Positions 1-12,549 of a stretch of 15,049 nucleotides of DNA are shown piece after piece. The DNA is taken from UHGV virus genome UHGV-0082254. One strand, 5' to 3'. The first letter of the stretch is position 1; each line of letters opens with the position of its first letter. Origin of the DNA: a virus. A program made the position numbers and the translations under genes. The notes beneath the pieces are model-generated. The model made no database searches and was not told the origin of the DNA. It saw only the letters and a program-made list of their open reading frames with translations.

Positions 1-101
1 ATCGGCTCAAACATGAAGAAATGAAATGACTGAGTCAGCCGAGAAGAATTTCCCCGCTTATTCGCACCTTCCCTAACACAGCAAAACTGCTTGCAGAAGA
101 A

Positions 102-764
102 TTGACCGGATTAATTCTGGATACAATTGTCTATCCCGACACTATTACCAGCTATGTTTCAACGATAAGAACAACCACAACCGGCTTAACGAACATTGGA
201 GAACTGGCAACTAAGCACGCGGACCTGTTGGCTGGTTATGCAGATCTGTCAATGCTGCTTCAACTCGATATTGGTTGGGATGTTTACTGCCGTGCTAATG
301 AGCGAGAAGTTTCAGAACTGCCGATCTCTATTGCCATTGGTGATGTGAATATTACTAAATCGCTTGAGGACGCTGTTAACGCGCTTAATACATCAAGTTT
401 AGTCGCTGCTATGGGGGAGATTAACCAGACCCTTAACACTGGCTCAGGAAGCTCGTCAGGCTCTGGTTCAGGCGGCGGCACTGCCACTCCCCCACCAGCA
501 CTAACAGAAGAGCAAATTGAATCTCTGAAAGTAGCAACTGAACAGTTTGGGGTTGTTTTCAACCAGACAACAGCGCCCACAACTGCGTTACAACAGCAGT
601 ATGAACGAGCGAATGAAAGCGCCAACGTAGCCATAACTGCTTATAACCATGCTATCGGTACCGCGCTTGCGGAAGCATCAGCAAATAAGGTCAGCACAGC
701 CAGCGCAGTTGCCGCTTTGGTTCCTGATTCTGTTCTTGATGAATTAAACAAAGCGGCACAGTAA
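102..764 (+). CDS. hypothetical protein with two halves joined by a Gly/Ser-rich linker
   Basis: 663-nt ORF. In-frame stop at 27-29 and no ATG until codon 51, so the start is TTG at 102 with only a weak purine-rich RBS (GCAGAAGAA). Contains a GSGSSSGSGSGGG linker followed by an Ala/Thr/Gln-rich C-terminal half. No catalytic motif recognised. Confidence 0.4.
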   Translation: MTGLILDTIVYPDTITSYVSTIRTTTTGLTNIGELATKHADLLAGYADLSMLLQLDIGWDVYCRANEREVSELPISIAIGDVNITKSLEDAVNALNTSSLVAAMGEINQTLNTGSGSSSGSGSGGGTATPPPALTEEQIESLKVATEQFGVVFNQTTAPTTALQQQYERANESANVAITAYNHAIGTALAEASANKVSTASAVAALVPDSVLDELNKAAQ

Positions 765-803
765 CAAAGGACTTCATTGATAATTTTTCTTCAGGAGGAA
801 GAC

Positions 804-1226
804 ATGTCATTCTTTTCTACGTTAAAAACAGCTTTGTCTTTGAAGGAGAAACTTGCTGCTACTGGTGTTCTTGTTCTGATTTGCGCACTTGTTGGTGCTG
901 GGTTTGCATGGGAACGTCATCAGCTAAAGCAAGCTATGGAGAAAATTGGCAGTCTTGATCAGGCTGTTAAGGAACGTGATAAGTCAATAATGGATCTTAA
1001 CCAGACCATTGAGACGATGAACAAAGCAGAGCAACATTTTCACAGCCAGGAAGTGAAAAATGAATCAGAACAAGCCAAATATGCTGACAGGCAAATGGAA
1101 CGAAAAGCTGAAGTTCAGAAACAACTGGTTGCGGCGGGTAATGTTCGCCAGCGCATTCCTGCTGACACTCAGCGGTTGCTCCGGCAGTCGATCAGCGAAT
1201 TTAACGCCGACGCCGACAAAGGTTAA
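804..1226 (+). CDS. i-spanin-like (Rz-like) type II inner-membrane coiled-coil protein
   Basis: ATG at 804 preceded by strong SD CAGGAGGAAGAC (the track start at 777 is an upstream TTG). N-terminal hydrophobic segment LAATGVLVLICALVGAGFAW, then a charged, heptad-rich periplasmic region (QAMEKIGSLDQAVKERDKSIMDLNQTIETMNKAEQ...). A lipoprotein ORF overlaps its 3' end in the +1 frame. Confidence 0.5.
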   Translation: MSFFSTLKTALSLKEKLAATGVLVLICALVGAGFAWERHQLKQAMEKIGSLDQAVKERDKSIMDLNQTIETMNKAEQHFHSQEVKNESEQAKYADRQMERKAEVQKQLVAAGNVRQRIPADTQRLLRQSISEFNADADKG

Positions 1227-1392
1227 CCACCCTGCCCCCAAAAGTGCATTTATGTGCAGGATGCCAGAGTTTAGCAGTGAATATTTTGATGATCTGCCAG
1301 CCTATATCCTTGATACAGAAACGATGCTGATGGGGATTAACAGGAAGAATCGCAACGTTAATGATTACAACCGCGCTATCAGCGGTAACTAA
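1141..1392 (+). CDS. o-spanin-like (Rz1-like) outer-membrane lipoprotein, overlapped architecture
   Basis: +1-frame ORF overlapping the 3' end of the 804..1226 gene and extending 166 nt beyond it. Signal peptide with lipobox (RR)VMFASAFLLTLSG|C; mature part is short and Pro-rich (TPTPT, HPAP) with one further Cys. Start is ambiguous: ATG 1141, TTG 1129 (gives MRRVMFASAFLLTLSGC) or the upstream ATGs at 1060/1081. Confidence 0.5.
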   Translation: MFASAFLLTLSGCSGSRSANLTPTPTKVNHPAPKSAFMCRMPEFSSEYFDDLPAYILDTETMLMGINRKNRNVNDYNRAISGN

Positions 1393-1403
1393 AAGGGATT
1401 TTT

Positions 1404-1796
1404 ATGTCTGATAAAGTAACAGTAAAGCAAACTATCAACAAAGCGACTTCAATCTACAAAATTGAGCACATCACTGTTGGCAAGCCAGGATCTGAACAAT
1501 ACCGTCATGCTTTCGAGCTTGCCGATCAGCTTGGTTTAAAACACCCGGATTGCATCGAGCATGTATTTCCGACCTATGCTGATGAGCAATGTACTCATGT
1601 TCTTACCGAAGAGGATTTTTTCAGCACTGAAGAACGAGAAGGCGTTGATCGCTGCATTGGTGTGATTTGTTCTTCGGTAAGTGATGAGTTATTCCCTAAT
1701 GTGCCTGAATATGGTGGTATTGGATACCAATTCCTGTACGAAGGCGATGAGCTTAAATGTTATGAACATGGTCTTCTTATCGAAAGCGTAGAATAA
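1404..1796 (+). CDS. hypothetical acidic Cys/His-containing protein
   Basis: 130-aa ORF with ATG start and SD AAAGGGA 6 nt upstream. Acidic, with spaced Cys/His (HPDCIEH, EQCTH, DRCIGVICSS, KCYEH) that could bind metal. Followed by a hairpin terminator. Confidence 0.6.
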   Translation: MSDKVTVKQTINKATSIYKIEHITVGKPGSEQYRHAFELADQLGLKHPDCIEHVFPTYADEQCTHVLTEEDFFSTEEREGVDRCIGVICSSVSDELFPNVPEYGGIGYQFLYEGDELKCYEHGLLIESVE

Positions 1797-1809
1797 TACC
1801 CTTCCTTCC

Positions 1810-1836
1810 AACCGGCTATGTTGGCCGGTTTATTCA
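1810..1836 (+). terminator. rho-independent terminator candidate
   Basis: AACCGGC-tatgttg-GCCGGTT stem followed by T-rich TTATTCAACTT, immediately after the 1404..1796 stop. Confidence 0.5.
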
Positions 1837-1838
1837 AC

Positions 1839-1847
1839 TTATCCACA
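1839..1847 (+). promoter_or_regulatory. DnaA box (TTATCCACA) at the plasmid origin
   Basis: Perfect 9-mer TTATCCACA directly upstream of the GATC cluster and iterons, as expected for a P1-type oriR. Confidence 0.7.
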
Positions 1848-1852
1848 GCATA

Positions 1853-1909
1853 GATCCAATAAACAGATCCCAAAGAGAACCTAGGAAGATCCAAAGAAGA
1901 TCCCGGATC
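1853..1909. repeat. cluster of five GATC (Dam) sites in AGATCC-type repeats
   Basis: GATC at 1853, 1866, 1888, 1899 and 1906, four of them within AGATCC(A/C) repeats; lies between the DnaA box and the iterons. Confidence 0.7.
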
Positions 1910-1950
1910 GCTGTAAGCCGCGCCGTTCATGGCCTGAAACGGGATCAACA

Positions 1951-2056
1951 TTGACTATACGCGATTTTATGTTGACTGTGTGCGATTTTATGTTGACTGC
2001 ACGCGATTTATTGTTGACTATACGCGACAGAAACGTTGACTGTACGCGATTTTAGA
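1951..2056 (+). repeat. five direct iterons (incC-like) of the RepA origin
   Basis: TTGACT(A/G)T(A/G)(C/T)GCGATTT(T)A(T/G) repeated at 1951, 1972, 1993, 2014 and 2036 with 21-22 bp periodicity, immediately upstream of repA. Confidence 0.85.
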
Positions 2057-2130
2057 GCCTGAATATTCACAGCTGTTGATAACAGTCATCTAAATTAACG
2101 CCAGGCCGCGCCACACATGGAGAAACCACG

Positions 2131-3015
2131 ATGCCGGAAGAAAGTAAAGGCTTCCTTAGCGTTGAAGAAGTTGCAGGAAATACAGGAGAAATCCACAGCC
2201 TGAAGCCCAATAACAACAGCACTATACAACCTATCGCTTTGTTGCGCTTAGGTGTGTTTGTGCCAACCTTAAAATCTACCAATGTGGCACTACGTCGCGG
2301 ATCGTCAGTTACTACAAACACAACGAACGCAACCGAAGAACTATCAAGCCTTAAAATTGTTGAGCAGGAAGGCTATGAGGGAATTGAAATTCATGGCCCA
2401 CGCCTGGATATGGATACTGATTTTAAGGTGTGGGTGGGCATAACCTCCGCGTTGTTTGACTACGCACCTGATGATGACGGCATAATCACCCTGCCATTCT
2501 CCGAGTTTGCCGATCGATGCGGCTATCCACGTAAGCGCCTTTCAAAGGCGTTCCGTAAAAGTATTGATGACTCTCTGACACGCATTCAGCAGACAGTTGT
2601 CAAATTCCGCTTCCCGGCGGCAAAAGGTCATCTCAATAACATTAACGTCAACTTGTTGGCATATAGCAGCCTGAATACCGAGCTTGATGTTATCGAGATC
2701 CAGCCGCAGAAACAGCTATCTGAACTTTACTATGTTGACTATAAGCGAATCCTGAAGCTGAAGATGCTGGATAAGCTCGGGCGCAAAGAGACGGCCAAGG
2801 TACTGTATACATTCTTTGAGGCTCTACCCGCCAACCCGGCACCTGTCAGCATTGAGCGCCTTAGAGCAAGGCTTAATCTCAAATCATCCGTTAGCGTGCA
2901 AAATAGCGTTATCAGAAAAGCCATGAAAGATTTGGAAGCTATTGAATATCTTAAATTTTCAGAGATAAAAAACGGCAGGAAAATCGGCTTCCAGATCCAT
3001 AAGCGCAATCCATAA
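2131..3015 (+). CDS. repA: iteron-binding plasmid replication initiator RepA (P1 RepA family)
   Basis: 294-aa ORF with SD GGAGAAA, flanked by iteron arrays on both sides. Protein blocks (PIALLRLGVFVP, GPRLDMDTDFKVWVG) resemble P1 RepA as I recall it. Confidence 0.85.
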   Translation: MPEESKGFLSVEEVAGNTGEIHSLKPNNNSTIQPIALLRLGVFVPTLKSTNVALRRGSSVTTNTTNATEELSSLKIVEQEGYEGIEIHGPRLDMDTDFKVWVGITSALFDYAPDDDGIITLPFSEFADRCGYPRKRLSKAFRKSIDDSLTRIQQTVVKFRFPAAKGHLNNINVNLLAYSSLNTELDVIEIQPQKQLSELYYVDYKRILKLKMLDKLGRKETAKVLYTFFEALPANPAPVSIERLRARLNLKSSVSVQNSVIRKAMKDLEAIEYLKFSEIKNGRKIGFQIHKRNP

Positions 3016-3017
3016 TA

Positions 3018-3272
3018 TTGACTATATGCGATAGCGAGAAGTTGACTATAGGCGACATTCGTTGACGCTGGTGGATTTTTGCTGGCGTCAATATTCTGCA
3101 AGTCGCTATTGAGATGGCTTTTAGGGTCATTTCATCGCGTATAGTCAACGTTTCTCCCGACAATATCTTACATAGTCGATCTTTGGTGGAGTTAAATCGA
3201 CTACAGTCAACTTTTGACTGTAGTCACATCGCGCATAGTCAACTATTCACATTAACTTTCGCGCATAGTCAA
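3018..3272. repeat. downstream iteron array (incA-like copy-control locus), about nine sites in both orientations
   Basis: Direct-orientation TTGACTRT.. at 3018, 3042, 3062 (degenerate) and 3214; inverted-orientation ..RTAGTCAA ending at 3148, 3180 (partial), 3210, 3242 and 3272. Confidence 0.8.
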
Positions 3273-3307
3273 CATTTGCGCGGTTCTCATCAAGCAGTGG
3301 TATTGAT

Positions 3308-4117
3308 ATGCAAGAAGAGAAACAACACTACCTCTACGTTCTGGTGCCGGAGAACGGAGATACTTTTAAAATCGGCATTTCATGTGGTCCATTGGCACGG
3401 TTTAAAGGGCTACAAGTGAGTCCCGATTTTGCGCTTTCACGGGTCTATCGTGGTACGCGTTTGGCAATAGTTAATCTTGAGCGGGCTTTACACGCAACCT
3501 TTTTCCCCTGGAATGCGCCGTGGGAGAAAAGCGCTGGTGGCGGGCATACTGAATGGTTTACACGAGAGTGTCTTGATAAGGTTTTGGCTCATATCGAATA
3601 TCTAAATGATATGTGGGGAGGGATTCTCGAGCGCATTAAGTCGAATGATTTACTTCAGCGTCCAGTAGATGCTGCCCGCTCTTTCGAAAAAGAGCTGGAT
3701 GTTACTTCTATCGTGACTTTCAAAGATGACGCAGGAATGAGGGACGTGGCTTATGTCTCCATATCTGGCTATGAACCGGACGCGATCCGCGCTCAATGTG
3801 AATTGCTGAAAGCAATGTTTATGCTTCGGACTAAATATCCCTGGGAGACAAGGCGGGTGTGCTTCCCTATGGAAGAGTTAACCGCCACCATTGATTCCCA
3901 GCTTTACCACGATAATCCAGAGAAGTTTTTTAGCCTTTTAGCCGGTAATGGGCTTAACTGTGTGTCCGGGCTGGGGCGAAGTAGAATCCAACATGCCTCG
4001 CTCTTCGGTCCCTTCTTTTACGATCGACACGGGTACTTTGAGGCTGAACTTCCGGCGCTTACGCGTGCTATAGATACTATCGATTTCGAACGATTATTCG
4101 CTGCTCTTAGCAAATAA
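3308..4117 (+). CDS. T5orf172 / GIY-YIG-like domain protein of unknown function
   Basis: 269-aa ORF with ATG start. The N-terminal ~90 aa carry the T5orf172-type pattern: HYLYVLV ... FKIGIS ... R ... LERALHATF ... GGHTEWF. The C-terminal ~170 aa are unassigned. Sits between incA and the par promoter. Confidence 0.7.
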   Translation: MQEEKQHYLYVLVPENGDTFKIGISCGPLARFKGLQVSPDFALSRVYRGTRLAIVNLERALHATFFPWNAPWEKSAGGGHTEWFTRECLDKVLAHIEYLNDMWGGILERIKSNDLLQRPVDAARSFEKELDVTSIVTFKDDAGMRDVAYVSISGYEPDAIRAQCELLKAMFMLRTKYPWETRRVCFPMEELTATIDSQLYHDNPEKFFSLLAGNGLNCVSGLGRSRIQHASLFGPFFYDRHGYFEAELPALTRAIDTIDFERLFAALSK

Positions 4118-8489: not shown

Positions 8490-9980
8490 ATGTCTCAATA
8501 TTCAATTCAACAGTCATTAGGTAATGCATCCGGCGTCGCGGTTAGCCCGATCAATGCCGATGCGACGTTATCTACAGGTGTTGCATTAAATAGCAGCTTG
8601 TGGGCTGGTATTGGCGTATTTGCGCGTGGCAAGCCGTTTACTGTTCTTGCGGTTACTGAGTCCAATTACGAAGATGTTCTCGGCGAACCGCTGAAGCCGT
8701 CTTCCGGCTCACAGTTCGAACCAATTCGCCATGTATACGAAGCTATTCAGCAAACGTCTGGTTATGTTGTCCGTGCTGTTCCGGATGATGCGAAGTTCCC
8801 GGTTATTATGTTCGATGAATCAGGCGAACCGGCTTACAGTGCGTTGCCATACGGTTCTGAAATTGAACTTGATAGCGGCGAAGCCTTTGCTATCTACGTT
8901 GATGATGGTGATCCGTGTATTTCACCTACCCGTGAGTTAACCATTGAAACGGCAACAGCGGACAGCGCAGGTAATGAACGCTTCCTCCTGAAACTGACCC
9001 AGACGACTTCGCTCGGCGTGGTAACGACCCTGGAGACACACACTGTGTCTTTGGCGGAAGAAGCGAAAGATGACATGGGCCGCTTGTGTTATCTGCCTAC
9101 GGCTCTGGAAGCCCGTTCTAAATATCTGCGCGCGGTTGTTAATGAAGAGCTGATTTCGACCGCGAAAGTAACAAATAAAAAATCACTGGCGTTCACTGGC
9201 GGTACCAACGGCGATCAGTCGAAAATCTCCACCGAAGCCTACCTGCGTGCGGTTAAGGTGCTGAACAATGCGCCGTACATGTACACCGCTGTTCTCGGCC
9301 TGGGTTGCTATGACAATGCGGCGATCACCGCGTTAGGTAATATCTGTTCTGATCGCCTGATTGATGGCTTCTTTGATGTCAAACCGACATTGACGTACAC
9401 GGAAGCGCTCTCTGCTGTTGAAGATACCGGTTTACTTGGTACCGATTATGTAAGCTGTGCTGTCTATCACTTCCCGTTCTCCTGCAAAGACAAATGGACC
9501 CAATCCCGTGTGGTCTTCGGTCTGTCTGGCGCGGCGTATGCGGCGAAAGCTCGTGGCGTCAAGAAAAACTCTGATGTCGGCGGTTGGCATTACTCACCGG
9601 CTGGTGAAGAACGTGCCGTCATTGCTCGTGCGTCAATTCAACCGCTGTATCCGGAAGATACCCCGGACGAAGAAGCAATGGTTAAGGGCCGCCTCAATAA
9701 AGTATCTGTTGGCACCTCTGGCCAGATGATCATCGACGATGCTTTAACTTGCTGCACGCAGGATAACTATCTGCACTTCCAGCACGTCCCATCCCTGATG
9801 AATGCAATCAGCCGTTTCTTTGTCCAGTTAGCCCGCCAGATGAAGCATAGCCCTGACGGTACAGAACCGTATGTGCTGAAAGTTACGCAGGCGGAATTCG
9901 ATAAATGGGAAGTAGTCTGGGCCTGCTGCCCGACTGGCGTAGCCCGTCGTATCCAGGGCGTACCGCTGCTTATTAAGTAA
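8490..9980 (+). CDS. contractile tail sheath protein
   Basis: 496 aa, SD AGGGAAAG. C-terminal blocks (GGWHYSP..., VSVGTSGQMIIDDALTC) resemble the conserved C-terminal region of Myoviridae sheath proteins; located upstream of tube-like genes. Confidence 0.55.
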   Translation: MSQYSIQQSLGNASGVAVSPINADATLSTGVALNSSLWAGIGVFARGKPFTVLAVTESNYEDVLGEPLKPSSGSQFEPIRHVYEAIQQTSGYVVRAVPDDAKFPVIMFDESGEPAYSALPYGSEIELDSGEAFAIYVDDGDPCISPTRELTIETATADSAGNERFLLKLTQTTSLGVVTTLETHTVSLAEEAKDDMGRLCYLPTALEARSKYLRAVVNEELISTAKVTNKKSLAFTGGTNGDQSKISTEAYLRAVKVLNNAPYMYTAVLGLGCYDNAAITALGNICSDRLIDGFFDVKPTLTYTEALSAVEDTGLLGTDYVSCAVYHFPFSCKDKWTQSRVVFGLSGAAYAAKARGVKKNSDVGGWHYSPAGEERAVIARASIQPLYPEDTPDEEAMVKGRLNKVSVGTSGQMIIDDALTCCTQDNYLHFQHVPSLMNAISRFFVQLARQMKHSPDGTEPYVLKVTQAEFDKWEVVWACCPTGVARRIQGVPLLIK

Positions 9981-12059: not shown

Positions 12060-12215
12060 TTACCTTTCAGATTCGTAGGCTGTGAAGACAGTGACCTCCG
12101 TCTGGCCGGTTCGGATTCGTACCTCGCAGAGGTCTTTTCTCGTTACCAGTGCCGTCACTATGACGGTTAAACAGATGACGATCAGAGCGATTAACATCGC
12201 TTTTTGCTGCTTCAT
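12060..12215 (-). CDS. hok: Hok/Gef-family type I toxin
   Basis: 51-aa minus-strand ORF MKQQKAMLIALIVICLTVIVTALVTRKDLCEVRIRTGQTEVTVFTAYESER with the Hok family signature; SD AAGGAG 9 nt upstream; GGCGGGGA-gaga-TCCCCGCC 3' stem-loop on the mRNA strand at 12022-12041. Confidence 0.85.
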   Translation of the reverse strand: MKQQKAMLIALIVICLTVIVTALVTRKDLCEVRIRTGQTEVTVFTAYESER

Positions 12216-12273
12216 AGCCTGCTTCTCCTTGACCTTTTGGTCGGTAAGAGGCTAATCTACGTATGCTAAGCAT
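12067..12273 (-). CDS. mok: mok-like overlapping reading frame (modulator of hok translation)
   Basis: 68-codon frame starting 58 nt upstream of hok in a different frame and ending 7 nt from the hok stop, the arrangement seen in hok/mok/sok loci. Confidence 0.55.
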   Translation of the reverse strand: MLSIRRLASYRPKGQGEAGYEAAKSDVNRSDRHLFNRHSDGTGNEKRPLRGTNPNRPDGGHCLHSLRI

Positions 12274-12549
12274 AGATATGGCCTCAGATTAATGTTAAGC
12301 GTCTTGCAGGACGCGTAATGTTATCTGGGGCTTTCTTCTATCTGCTTTTCGGGTAATGCCTGAAGCAGATAGCCTCAAGCACCCGCAGCGATTGTATCAA
12401 TGTCTGGCTTTTTTTCTATAGAAATCACCTGGAAGGGTGAATACCCACATCAGAAGAAACGTTGCAGCAAACATGATCCCTAATGGCCAGACCGCGCCAA
12501 AGAAAATCCATACTGAAAACGCCAGGTGACTCCAGATTAGAGCAATCTA

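Follow-up and report, generated by a model that had tools for sequence, protein, structure and literature searches.

The ppfA/mlp genes of a P1-like phage-plasmid as a predicted overlapped two-component spanin separated by IS5 from the upstream part of its operon

The window analyzed here is a 15,049-nucleotide stretch of the virus genome UHGV-0082254, and its positions 804-1392, judged by sequence identity, are the ppfA/mlp gene pair of a P1-like phage-plasmid. The corresponding regions of P1, P7, SJ46 and RCS47 are 94-99% identical to the window with gene order shared, and these elements, together with many P1-like plasmids, carry the pair in the order upfB-ppfA-mlp-upfA-oriR. The encoded PpfA (98.6% identity) and Mlp (98.8%) differ from the P1 proteins by only a few amino-acid substitutions. 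The replicon downstream is of the p0111/RepFIB-like type, whereas that of P1 is of the IncY type, and upfB is broken in the window by an IS5 element, an interruption that the P1-type pair lacks. The region contains the following features:

1-72, strand not assigned: right end of IS5 (100% match of bases 1-76 to IS5-bearing records)
57-72: IS5 terminal inverted repeat, read from the sequence
73-76: CTAA, target site of IS5
73-764, plus strand: 3' part of upfB, its 5' end lost to IS5 (phrog_1559/36566 matches and P1 annotation)
792-797, plus strand: AGGAGG, Shine-Dalgarno sequence of ppfA (anti-Shine-Dalgarno duplex -10.3 kcal/mol)
804-1226, plus strand: ppfA, predicted i-spanin, 140 aa (phrog_89, "Rz-like spanin", 1e-25; 98.6% identity to P1 PpfA)
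1060-1062, plus strand: ATG, database-annotated mlp start (39-aa signal sequence; AGGAAG ahead)
1129-1392, plus strand: mlp, predicted o-spanin, likeliest extent, in the +1 frame relative to ppfA (phrog_30284 and phrog_456, "Rz-like spanin")
1141-1143, plus strand: ATG, alternative mlp start (P1 clade only; signal peptide without a basic n-region)
1404-1796, plus strand: upfA, last gene of the unit (phrog_1453; relatives match Pfam Phage_gp49_66)
1808-1834, plus strand: terminator-like hairpin and T-run between upfA and oriR

Homology to P1 runs from position 73 onward, the IS5 insertion point lying 154 nt into upfB, and oriR with its iterons starts about 100 nt past upfA. A preliminary description had presented the genes as a spanin-like pair next to the plasmid origin. 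The location is correct, but it misleads about the context: ppfA and mlp are the distal part of a late upfC-upfB-ppfA-mlp-upfA unit. The same description had noted no holin or endolysin in view, and indeed we found none among the open reading frames of the 15-kb window.

The upstream open reading frame spans 777-1226, and position 777 had been taken as the start of the gene. The likely start is instead ATG 804, preceded by AGGAGG, the same Shine-Dalgarno sequence that is recorded for P1 gp064 in Table S1 of Kongari 2018. The product has the features expected of an i-spanin, that is, a predicted single N-terminal transmembrane domain followed by a predicted helical, partly coiled-coil periplasmic domain. 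A hydrophobic stretch at residues ~17-35 (Kyte-Doolittle maximum over 19 residues, 2.35) would form the one N-terminal transmembrane helix; 35% of the residues of the periplasmic part are charged and none is cysteine. The AlphaFold2 model of PpfA consists of helices at residues 13-110 and 120-137 with a break at 111-119 (mean pLDDT 68), and residues 46-73 show a heptad pattern that was equalled by only one of 1000 shuffled sequences. The view of PpfA as a membrane protein with a coiled-coil periplasmic domain stood up at the level of prediction. From the distribution of charges, we infer an N-in/C-out orientation.

In the +1 frame, the open reading frame at 1060-1392 bears the lipobox LSGC, with the cysteine codon at 1177-1179 and serine at position +2. 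As anticipated, this frame starts within the 3' end of ppfA and continues beyond it, running 166 nt past the ppfA stop to position 1392; the two genes overlap by 98 nt if mlp is counted from TTG 1129 and by 167 nt if it is counted from ATG 1060. The predicted o-spanin gene thus overlaps the predicted i-spanin gene, as is characteristic of such pairs, and the putative lipoprotein Mlp possesses the lipobox cysteine and lacks aspartate at +2, as an o-spanin should. A LipoP cleavage site is given for the P1 protein, gp063, in Table S1 of Kongari 2018. The mature part would be 71 aa long. It had been described as proline-rich; prolines are present, although the enrichment is modest, with six residues clustered in TPTPTKVNHPAP.

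Comparison of relatives strongly supports translation of the second frame. All 12 P1-like loci examined, at nucleotide identities of 61-99%, preserve the +1 open reading frame and its lipobox (LSGC, LSAC, LNGC, LNAC or LVAC), and the C-terminal 45 aa of Mlp are near-invariant even in the loci of 61-68% identity. In the part that encodes mlp only, diversity at the three mlp codon positions is 0.15, 0.09 and 0.44, third positions being ~3-5 times more variable than first and second positions, which indicates purifying selection on the mlp frame. Conversely, third-position diversity of ppfA falls from 0.45 to 0.22 inside the overlap (Mann-Whitney p = 1.5e-5). These data show that both frames are under purifying selection among ten diverged relatives. 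The change point of ppfA third-position diversity lies at codons 108-113, with dual-coding constraint beginning near codon 109.

That boundary bears on the start codon of mlp, which the preliminary description had called ambiguous between ATG 1141 and TTG 1129. The ambiguity is real, and the databases add a third start, ATG 1060. Since dual-coding constraint begins near ppfA codon 109, translation probably starts at TTG 1129 and not at ATG 1060, and no +1-frame amino-acid constraint was found between ATG 1060 and 1129 in the comparison of relatives. Sequence comparison thus makes TTG 1129, 16 codons ahead of the cysteine, the most likely start. Its product would have (M)RRVMFASAFLLTLSG as signal peptide, and the next residue would be the cysteine predicted to be lipidated, encoded at 1177-1179. 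Nine of the 12 loci have ATG at position -16 from the cysteine, where the P1 clade has TTG, and the ATG 1060 form is flagged in Kongari 2018 with "Too long signal sequence". Against TTG 1129 count its missing Shine-Dalgarno sequence (duplex -0.5 kcal/mol), an AGG codon at position -16 in JK004, and an ATG further upstream, present in every clade and served by a Shine-Dalgarno sequence of -5 to -11.6 kcal/mol. ATG 1141 was rejected as a general mlp start, the relatives having Leu or Phe codons there, and so was the 46-aa "Rz1" open reading frame of MH422554, equivalent to window positions 1252-1392, which is without a signal peptide.

The upstream ATG, which lies at 1060 here and one codon downstream in other clades, is kept in every clade and is preceded in most by AGGAGG. 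It is conceivable, if rather unlikely, that mlp uses both this start and the one at position -16. The upstream start would give a precursor with a highly basic leader of 38-39 aa, while translation from position -16 (TTG 1129 here, ATG elsewhere) would produce a lipoprotein signal peptide of canonical type, 16 aa long. Were this true, the ratio of a slowly exported long form to a fast-exported short form could tune the amount of o-spanin at the outer membrane. Such a scheme would resemble the dual-start control of lambda S105/S107, except that in mlp it would act on the spanin.

We compared the two proteins with the spanin subunits of other phages. Sequence similarity indicates distant homology between Mlp and the P2 o-spanin LysC, short of membership in the LysC equivalog. 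BLASTP aligned Mlp and LysC with 38% identity over 68 aa (E = 9e-9), and the mature parts of the two proteins gave a z score of 6.8, with none of 2000 shuffles scoring as high. The similarity extends from the signal peptide through PTP and a conserved Cys-x-Met-Pro to a helix-like segment after it, the second cysteine and the PTP and MP motifs lining up in the alignment. In addition, Mlp matches phrog_456 at 4e-5, and phrog_456 is the best PHROG for P2 LysC. For PpfA the relationship is fainter. By sequence profile it falls in the same PHROG as P2 LysB, outside the lambda Rz family: phrog_89 matches PpfA at 1e-25 over 120 residues and LysB at 6e-61, although the PpfA match may be partly circular, PHROGs having probably been built with P1 proteins included. 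Pairwise and single-sequence profile comparisons of PpfA with P2 LysB or lambda Rz were not significant. Only the comparison of a PpfA alignment with a LysB alignment gave a signal, and a weak one (hhalign probability 40%, E = 3e-4 over 48 columns). A shuffle test of PpfA against LysB gave p ~0.015. The best NCBIfam matches were likewise P2 LysB for PpfA and P2 LysC for Mlp, both below the curated cut-offs (TIGR03495, 19.5 bits against 92.75; NF038368, 15.2 bits against 27).

In architecture, P2 LysB/LysC closely resembles the present pair, consisting of a 141-aa type II membrane protein and a lipoprotein whose gene overlaps the first in the +1 frame and continues beyond its stop. Both pairs lie within a late operon alongside tail or virion genes, the P2 genes R and S following directly after lysC. 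They differ in that P2 lysB/lysC sit in the Y-K-lysA-lysB-lysC lysis cassette, right after the holin gene Y, the endolysin gene K and lysA, whereas ppfA/mlp are remote from such genes, and in that periplasmic cysteines are conserved in LysB (C120 and C126 by alignment numbering) but absent from PpfA.

Lambda Rz/Rz1, the prototype that has been characterized by experiment and in whose mutants lysis halts at spherical cells when cultures are unshaken or contain 10 mM Mg2+, follows the same design, a helical type II inner-membrane protein with a +1-frame outer-membrane lipoprotein whose mature part contains prolines, but no sequence relationship of either subunit to PpfA or Mlp was detectable by BLASTP (E = 0.37) or by shuffling, which was non-significant for both proteins. 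Lambda Rz and Rz1 belong to other PHROGs, phrog_13 and phrog_3198. Rz1 is fully embedded in Rz and has a mature part of 40 aa, whereas mlp is overlapped and encodes one of 71 aa, and the lambda proteins form intermolecular disulfides in both subunits, whereas PpfA has no periplasmic cysteine to offer. In Pfam, searched at E <= 1, PpfA had only coiled-coil matches below threshold and Mlp had no match at all; no Rz/Rz1 family turned up, and neither protein reached curated Pfam or NCBIfam thresholds. Searches of 50,697 phage records by tblastn, with PpfA and Mlp as queries, found P1-like phages only; word-indexed protein searches found P1-like relatives only, at least 59% identical; and scans of genomes and viral contigs with the PpfA alignment found only P1-like loci of the same synteny. 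None of these searches brought up distant homologues in a lysis cassette as independent evidence from context.

The genomic position of the pair is not that of a standard lysis cassette. Typically, though not obligatorily, the holin and endolysin genes are followed at once by the spanin genes (PMC9025707), and ppfA/mlp show no such linkage. For P1 this is the normal arrangement: in the P1 record lyz/lydD/lydE are at 20 kb and ppfA/mlp at 63.5 kb, which leaves ~43 kb between lyz and the pair. The neighbors upstream are virion genes, UpfB and UpfC having been assigned by cryo-EM to the P1 baseplate as its tripod and its PAAR-like spike tip, respectively (PMC12810830). Synteny with upfC/upfB is kept in all relatives examined, and few genes are as well conserved across P1-like plasmids as ppfA and mlp.

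Published RNA-seq of P1vir infection is consistent with expression late in the lytic cycle. Between 10 and 30 min, the log fold change rises from 5.6 to 11.2 for ppfA and from 4.1 to 10.5 for mlp; these kinetics are like those of lyz, lydA, lydB, 22 and 23 and unlike those of the neighboring repA, parA and uhr, and the whole upfC-upfB-ppfA-mlp-upfA unit behaves as late. When we searched with the late-promoter pattern AAGTGAYTT-N4-TANNNT, derived from LPlyz and LP23, LP23 was recovered in the window, and the Lpa-type motif was absent upstream of ppfA in the window and in P1 and upstream of upfC in P1. The P1 record annotates the predicted sigma-70 promoters P1ppfA and P2ppfA upstream and no late promoter; a generic sigma-70 scan did not recover these weak promoters. 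In the present element, the sequence places IS5 within upfB, between ppfA/mlp and the upstream part of the operon. This separates the pair from transcription entering from upstream and makes it uncertain whether the two genes are expressed in this element.

Taken together, it is very probable that ppfA/mlp constitute an overlapped two-component spanin of the P1-like phage-plasmid, a prediction that fits every feature tested. This reading has been published before. Summer 2007, as reported in PMC9025707, identified the P1 pair as a spanin from predicted features; Table S1 of Kongari 2018 enters P1 gp064/gp063 as an overlapped ("ovl") i-/o-spanin pair; the RefSeq records of P1 and P7 name mlp "Rz-like spanin"; and several P1-like records name the pair Rz/Rz1. 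The preliminary description had believed the genes to be annotated only generically. This holds for the 2004 names ("possible periplasmic function" for ppfA, "membrane lipoprotein precursor" for mlp) and for most P1-like plasmid records, which have "hypothetical protein", but not for the literature just cited. What is added here is the homology of Mlp to LysC, the PHROG of PpfA, the probable revised mlp start, the place of the pair at the end of a late-expressed operon with the baseplate genes upfC/upfB, and the IS5 cut.

Membrane localization, complex formation and membrane fusion by PpfA and Mlp are inferred by analogy, on the model of lambda Rz/Rz1. The N-terminal helix would hold PpfA in the inner membrane, with its helical, partly coiled-coil domain reaching into the periplasm, while Mlp would be exported, lipidated at the LSGC cysteine and directed by the serine at +2 to the outer membrane, where it would sit in the inner leaflet. 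PpfA and Mlp would then span the periplasm together, connecting through gaps in the peptidoglycan. Once the P1 holin LydA and the SAR-endolysin Lyz, encoded elsewhere in the genome, had destroyed the wall, the PpfA-Mlp complexes would be freed to pull both membranes together and fuse them, so that the outer membrane, the final obstacle to phage release, would be eliminated.

We considered whether ppfA/mlp might instead be a prophage-expressed envelope module with a role in the lysogen, transcribed from sigma-70 promoters next to the plasmid replicon. Such a module might serve in superinfection exclusion, in modifying the envelope as lambda Bor does, or in maintaining the plasmid in some way. 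The proximity of oriR, repA and the par genes, the conservation of the pair on P1-like plasmids, the exclusively sigma-70 promoter annotation and the missing Lpa box agree with such a role, as does a CRISPRi knock-down study in which both genes scored as non-essential for plaque formation, with plating almost unchanged (P1 EOP 1.3 and 1.2 for ppfA, 0.24 and 0.19 for mlp), and lambda Rz as essential. The knock-down result also counts against the spanin reading itself. [quoted passage not shown] We therefore regard a lysogenic role as quite unlikely.

The operon shared with the spike-tip and tripod genes, and its synteny in all relatives, could also be read as a sign that the pair acts at infection and not at release, by helping the membrane-piercing apparatus to assemble or DNA to enter. 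This seems very unlikely: PpfA and Mlp are missing from the protein inventory of the P1 virion obtained by cryo-EM (PMC12810830), a Sec/Lsp-exported lipoprotein and an inner-membrane-anchored protein would be improbable virion parts, and P2 lysB/lysC, within a single late operon, likewise stand directly ahead of R and S, which are tail genes. Since P2 lysB/lysC are linked to tail genes as well, such linkage is no argument against a role in lysis. Finally, only ppfA might be real, the lipoprotein frame being an untranslated by-product and the "pair" an artefact of reading open reading frames. Gene callers usually omit mlp, many records have ppfA alone or the truncated 46-aa frame, and the favored TTG start is without a Shine-Dalgarno sequence. 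Yet the frame, its lipobox and its C terminus persist in the most diverged loci, third positions of the mlp frame are the variable ones outside the overlap, synonymous variation in ppfA halves exactly where the overlap starts, and mature Mlp is significantly similar to LysC, which makes this explanation extremely improbable.

For the predicted spanin pair, the discovery value of these results is small, the genes having been catalogued as the P1 spanin since 2007, surveyed in 2018 and so named in RefSeq. They matter more for annotation. The standard 110-aa model of Mlp probably begins 23 codons too early, and the "hypothetical" labels and the truncated 46-aa "Rz1" affect the automated annotation of lysis genes and signal peptides. 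P1 is a model phage with unusually scattered lysis genes. In the element studied here, the IS5 in the baseplate gene upfB may make the phage defective and leave the spanin genes without their usual transcription.

Over window positions 73-3100, P1-like phage-plasmids (SJ46, RCS47, vB_EcoM-Ro157c2YLVW and hundreds of plasmids from E. coli) match at 97-99% identity; with phage P1 itself, identity is 94.6% over positions 73-1924. The gene order in the P1 record is upfC-upfB-ppfA-mlp-upfA-oriR-repA-parA-parB-23-22-21, and PHROG scans of the larger ORFs of the window recovered the replication initiator, ParA, ParB, capsid, sheath and tube proteins in matching order. From this identity and shared order we identify the feature at 777-1392, at the sequence level, as P1 ppfA plus mlp. 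A membrane helix, a +1-frame lipobox ORF and a coding signature support the overlapped two-component spanin proposed in the preliminary description, and we consider it very probable that ppfA and mlp form such a pair. Publications and RefSeq already carry this assignment; modest additions here are the homology to P2 LysC, the comparison bearing on the start codon, the reading of the pair as part of a late baseplate operon, and the interruption of the window copy by IS5.

The ppfA start was previously placed at TTG 777, but ATG 804, which lies behind an AGGAGG, is the most plausible start. The resulting protein of 140 aa has a single hydrophobic segment (residues ~17-35), the rest being 35% charged, and residues 46-73 show a heptad pattern equalled in 1 of 1000 shuffles, in agreement with the proposed type II membrane protein with a coiled-coil domain. 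AlphaFold2 (13-sequence alignment, mean pLDDT 68) predicted helices at 13-110 and 120-137, broken at AAGNVRQRIP. The sole cysteine lies within the membrane helix and the periplasmic part has none. As had been described, the mlp ORF opens inside ppfA and outruns its stop: it runs in the +1 frame from 1060 to 1392 and encodes the lipobox LSGC, followed by Ser at +2. The mature part of 71 aa contains TPTPTKVNHPAP plus one further Cys. The introduction of PMC9025707 names ppfA the o-spanin and mlp the i-spanin, the reverse of what the PpfA transmembrane helix and the Mlp lipobox indicate; the labels in Kongari 2018 Table S1 agree with the sequences.

The +1 frame was compared among 12 P1-like loci, with nucleotide identity as low as 61% (including JK004, L088-L091 and L092-L096). 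The +1 ORF and its lipobox were kept in all 12, as was a near-invariant Mlp C-terminal segment, AFMCRMPEF..EYFDDLPAYI.DT.T.L..INRKNRN. Past the ppfA stop, nucleotide diversity in this alignment by mlp codon position was 0.15/0.09/0.44, the signature expected of a translated mlp frame. Within ppfA, third-position diversity fell from 0.45 in codons 1-108 to 0.22 in codons 109-140 (p = 1.5e-5), as expected of dual coding, since third positions of ppfA codons are second positions of mlp codons.

The start of mlp had been described as ambiguous between ATG 1141 and TTG 1129, and ambiguous it is, although ATG 1141 is confined to the P1 clade and would give a signal peptide lacking a basic n-region. 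A further candidate is the database start, ATG 1060, which implies a 39-aa signal sequence; Kongari 2018 uses it, and the table in that study carries the flag "Too long signal sequence". Across 1060-1129, ppfA third-position diversity (0.435) does not differ significantly from that of the single-coding part upstream (p = 0.71) and exceeds that of the downstream part (p = 0.001), the best change point lying at codons 108-113, which argues against an amino-acid-constrained Mlp extension from 1060. Sixteen codons before the lipobox Cys (position -16), nine of the 12 loci have ATG, and the leader then takes a canonical form, as in MRQVLLASAFLLTLNGC; in the P1 clade, to which the window belongs, the codon is TTG (1129), and JK004 alone has a non-start codon there (AGG), with GTG at -20. 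The P2 LysC N-terminus, MRTKIF..., aligns with Mlp read from 1129.

Against 1129 counts its lack of a Shine-Dalgarno sequence (-0.5 kcal/mol). An SD-like motif and a +1-frame ATG lie at 1047-1062 and at the equivalent sites (L004, L088-L096), 38-39 codons before the Mlp Cys; the upstream ATG occurs in every clade, preceded by AGGAAG (P1 clade and window) or, in most relatives, by AGGAGG, with duplex energies of -5 to -11.6 kcal/mol. This motif falls in the conserved PpfA residues Q-E-V-K, yet drifts synonymously, and no constraint in the +1 frame was seen in the codons from the upstream ATG to position -16. The upstream signal may have arisen as a side effect of conservation in PpfA, or it may be a second mlp start, and both starts may be in use. 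Overall, the comparison leans modestly towards 1129 over 1060.

The family links point to P2 LysB and LysC. PpfA residues 21-140 match phrog_89 "Rz-like spanin" at 1e-25 (P2 LysB, 6e-61), a match that may be partly circular because P1 proteins were probably in the PHROGs building set; direct similarity of PpfA to LysB is weak (hhalign probability 40%, E = 3e-4; shuffle p about 0.015). Mlp hits phrog_456 (4e-5) besides its own phrog_30284, while LysC matches phrog_456 best and phrog_30284 weakly. BLASTP aligned Mlp and LysC at 38% identity over 68 residues (E = 9e-9), and without signal peptides their Smith-Waterman score was 52, against 23.3 ± 4.2 in shuffles (0 of 2000 as high), with PTP and Cys-x-Met-Pro motifs aligned. 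These alignments indicate distant homology of Mlp to the P2 o-spanin; PpfA is probably related in a similarly distant way to the P2 i-spanin. The best NCBIfam matches, TIGR03495 (LysB) for PpfA and NF038368 (LysC) for Mlp, both lie far under the curated cut-offs, by which neither protein is an equivalog. P2 lysB/lysC are likewise overlapped, but sit in a Y-K-lysA-lysB-lysC cassette followed by tail genes R and S.

No significant similarity to lambda Rz or Rz1 was found in direct comparisons; these proteins sit in different PHROGs from PpfA and Mlp (phrog_13 and phrog_3198), and in a Pfam scan (E <= 1) PpfA matched coiled-coil entries alone, all of them below threshold, and Mlp matched nothing. 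We therefore place ppfA/mlp, as judged by sequence, outside the lambda family. Unlike the lambda pair, PpfA lacks a periplasmic cysteine, and Mlp has one conserved mature-region Cys, aligned with a Cys of P2 LysC.

As had been reported, no holin or endolysin was found among the ORFs of the window in PHROG scans. Lysis genes are scattered in P1, with lyz-lydD-lydE at 20 kb, lydA-lydB near 30 kb (expression table, PMC8201110 Table S1) and ppfA-mlp at 63.5 kb, and the P1 spanin genes have been described as "in yet another unlinked operon" (PMC9025707); lysis genes away from ppfA/mlp are thus the normal P1 arrangement. The pair does adjoin the plasmid origin, but this position is not informative, as ppfA/mlp follow upfC and upfB, an order kept in all relatives examined, and these encode the baseplate spike tip and tripod by cryo-EM (PMC12810830). 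A terminator-like hairpin lies between upfA and oriR.

Log fold change in P1vir RNA-seq, wild-type host (PMC8201110 Table S1)
Genes; 10 min; 30 min
upfC, upfB, ppfA, mlp, upfA; 4.1-5.6; 10.5-11.2
lyz; 6.1; 11.3
lydA; 5.2; 11.8
23; 5.4; 12.1
repA, parA, uhr, hrdC; 7.4-9.5; 10.2-12.0

Since their time course matches those of lyz, lydA and 23, ppfA/mlp behave as late genes in P1vir infection, whereas nearby maintenance and early genes are high by 10 min. A late-promoter motif built from LPlyz and LP23, AAGTGAYTT-N4-TANNNT, was found neither upstream of ppfA in the window nor upstream of upfC in P1, and the P1 record annotates no Lpa-type late promoter upstream of upfC-upfB-ppfA-mlp-upfA (P1 locus L001, 2441-3740). 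The window copy is interrupted as follows:

1-72, IS5 end, inserted 154 nt into upfB
57-72, terminal inverted repeat of IS5
73-76, CTAA target site

IS5 severs ppfA-mlp-upfA from upstream transcription, and the window genes would depend on weak predicted sigma-70 promoters (P1 record) or on IS5 read-out. With its baseplate tripod gene disrupted, the P1-like element of the window may be defective as a phage.

The spanin mechanism is established for lambda Rz/Rz1. By analogy, inner-membrane PpfA and lipidated outer-membrane Mlp would form a periplasm-spanning complex restrained by peptidoglycan, which, once LydA and Lyz had degraded the wall, would make the inner membrane fuse with the outer. 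In published CRISPRi data, P1 plating hardly changed when ppfA or mlp was knocked down, which counts against a strictly essential role.

Elsewhere in the window, identity to P1 itself ends at 1924. The iterons and repA (region 1925-4117) are of the p0111/RepFIB-like type, as in SJ46, RCS47 and JL22, whereas those of P1 are of the IncY type, and an additional 269-aa ORF with a T5orf172 domain (7.6e-6) lies between repA and parA (3308-4117). The place of pmgF-rlfB-rlfA in P1 is taken by:

12060-12384 (-), hok/sok type I toxin-antitoxin locus, between bplB and repL

Its Hok/Gef peptide has 51 aa (Pfam PF01848, 2.4e-22) and its sok RNA matches Rfam RF01794 at 114.9 bits. In the gene for the tail sheath (P1 gene 22; 8490-9980), 33 codons are missing in frame, corresponding to residues 458-490 of P1 gp22; outside this deletion the protein is about 98% identical to P1 gp22.
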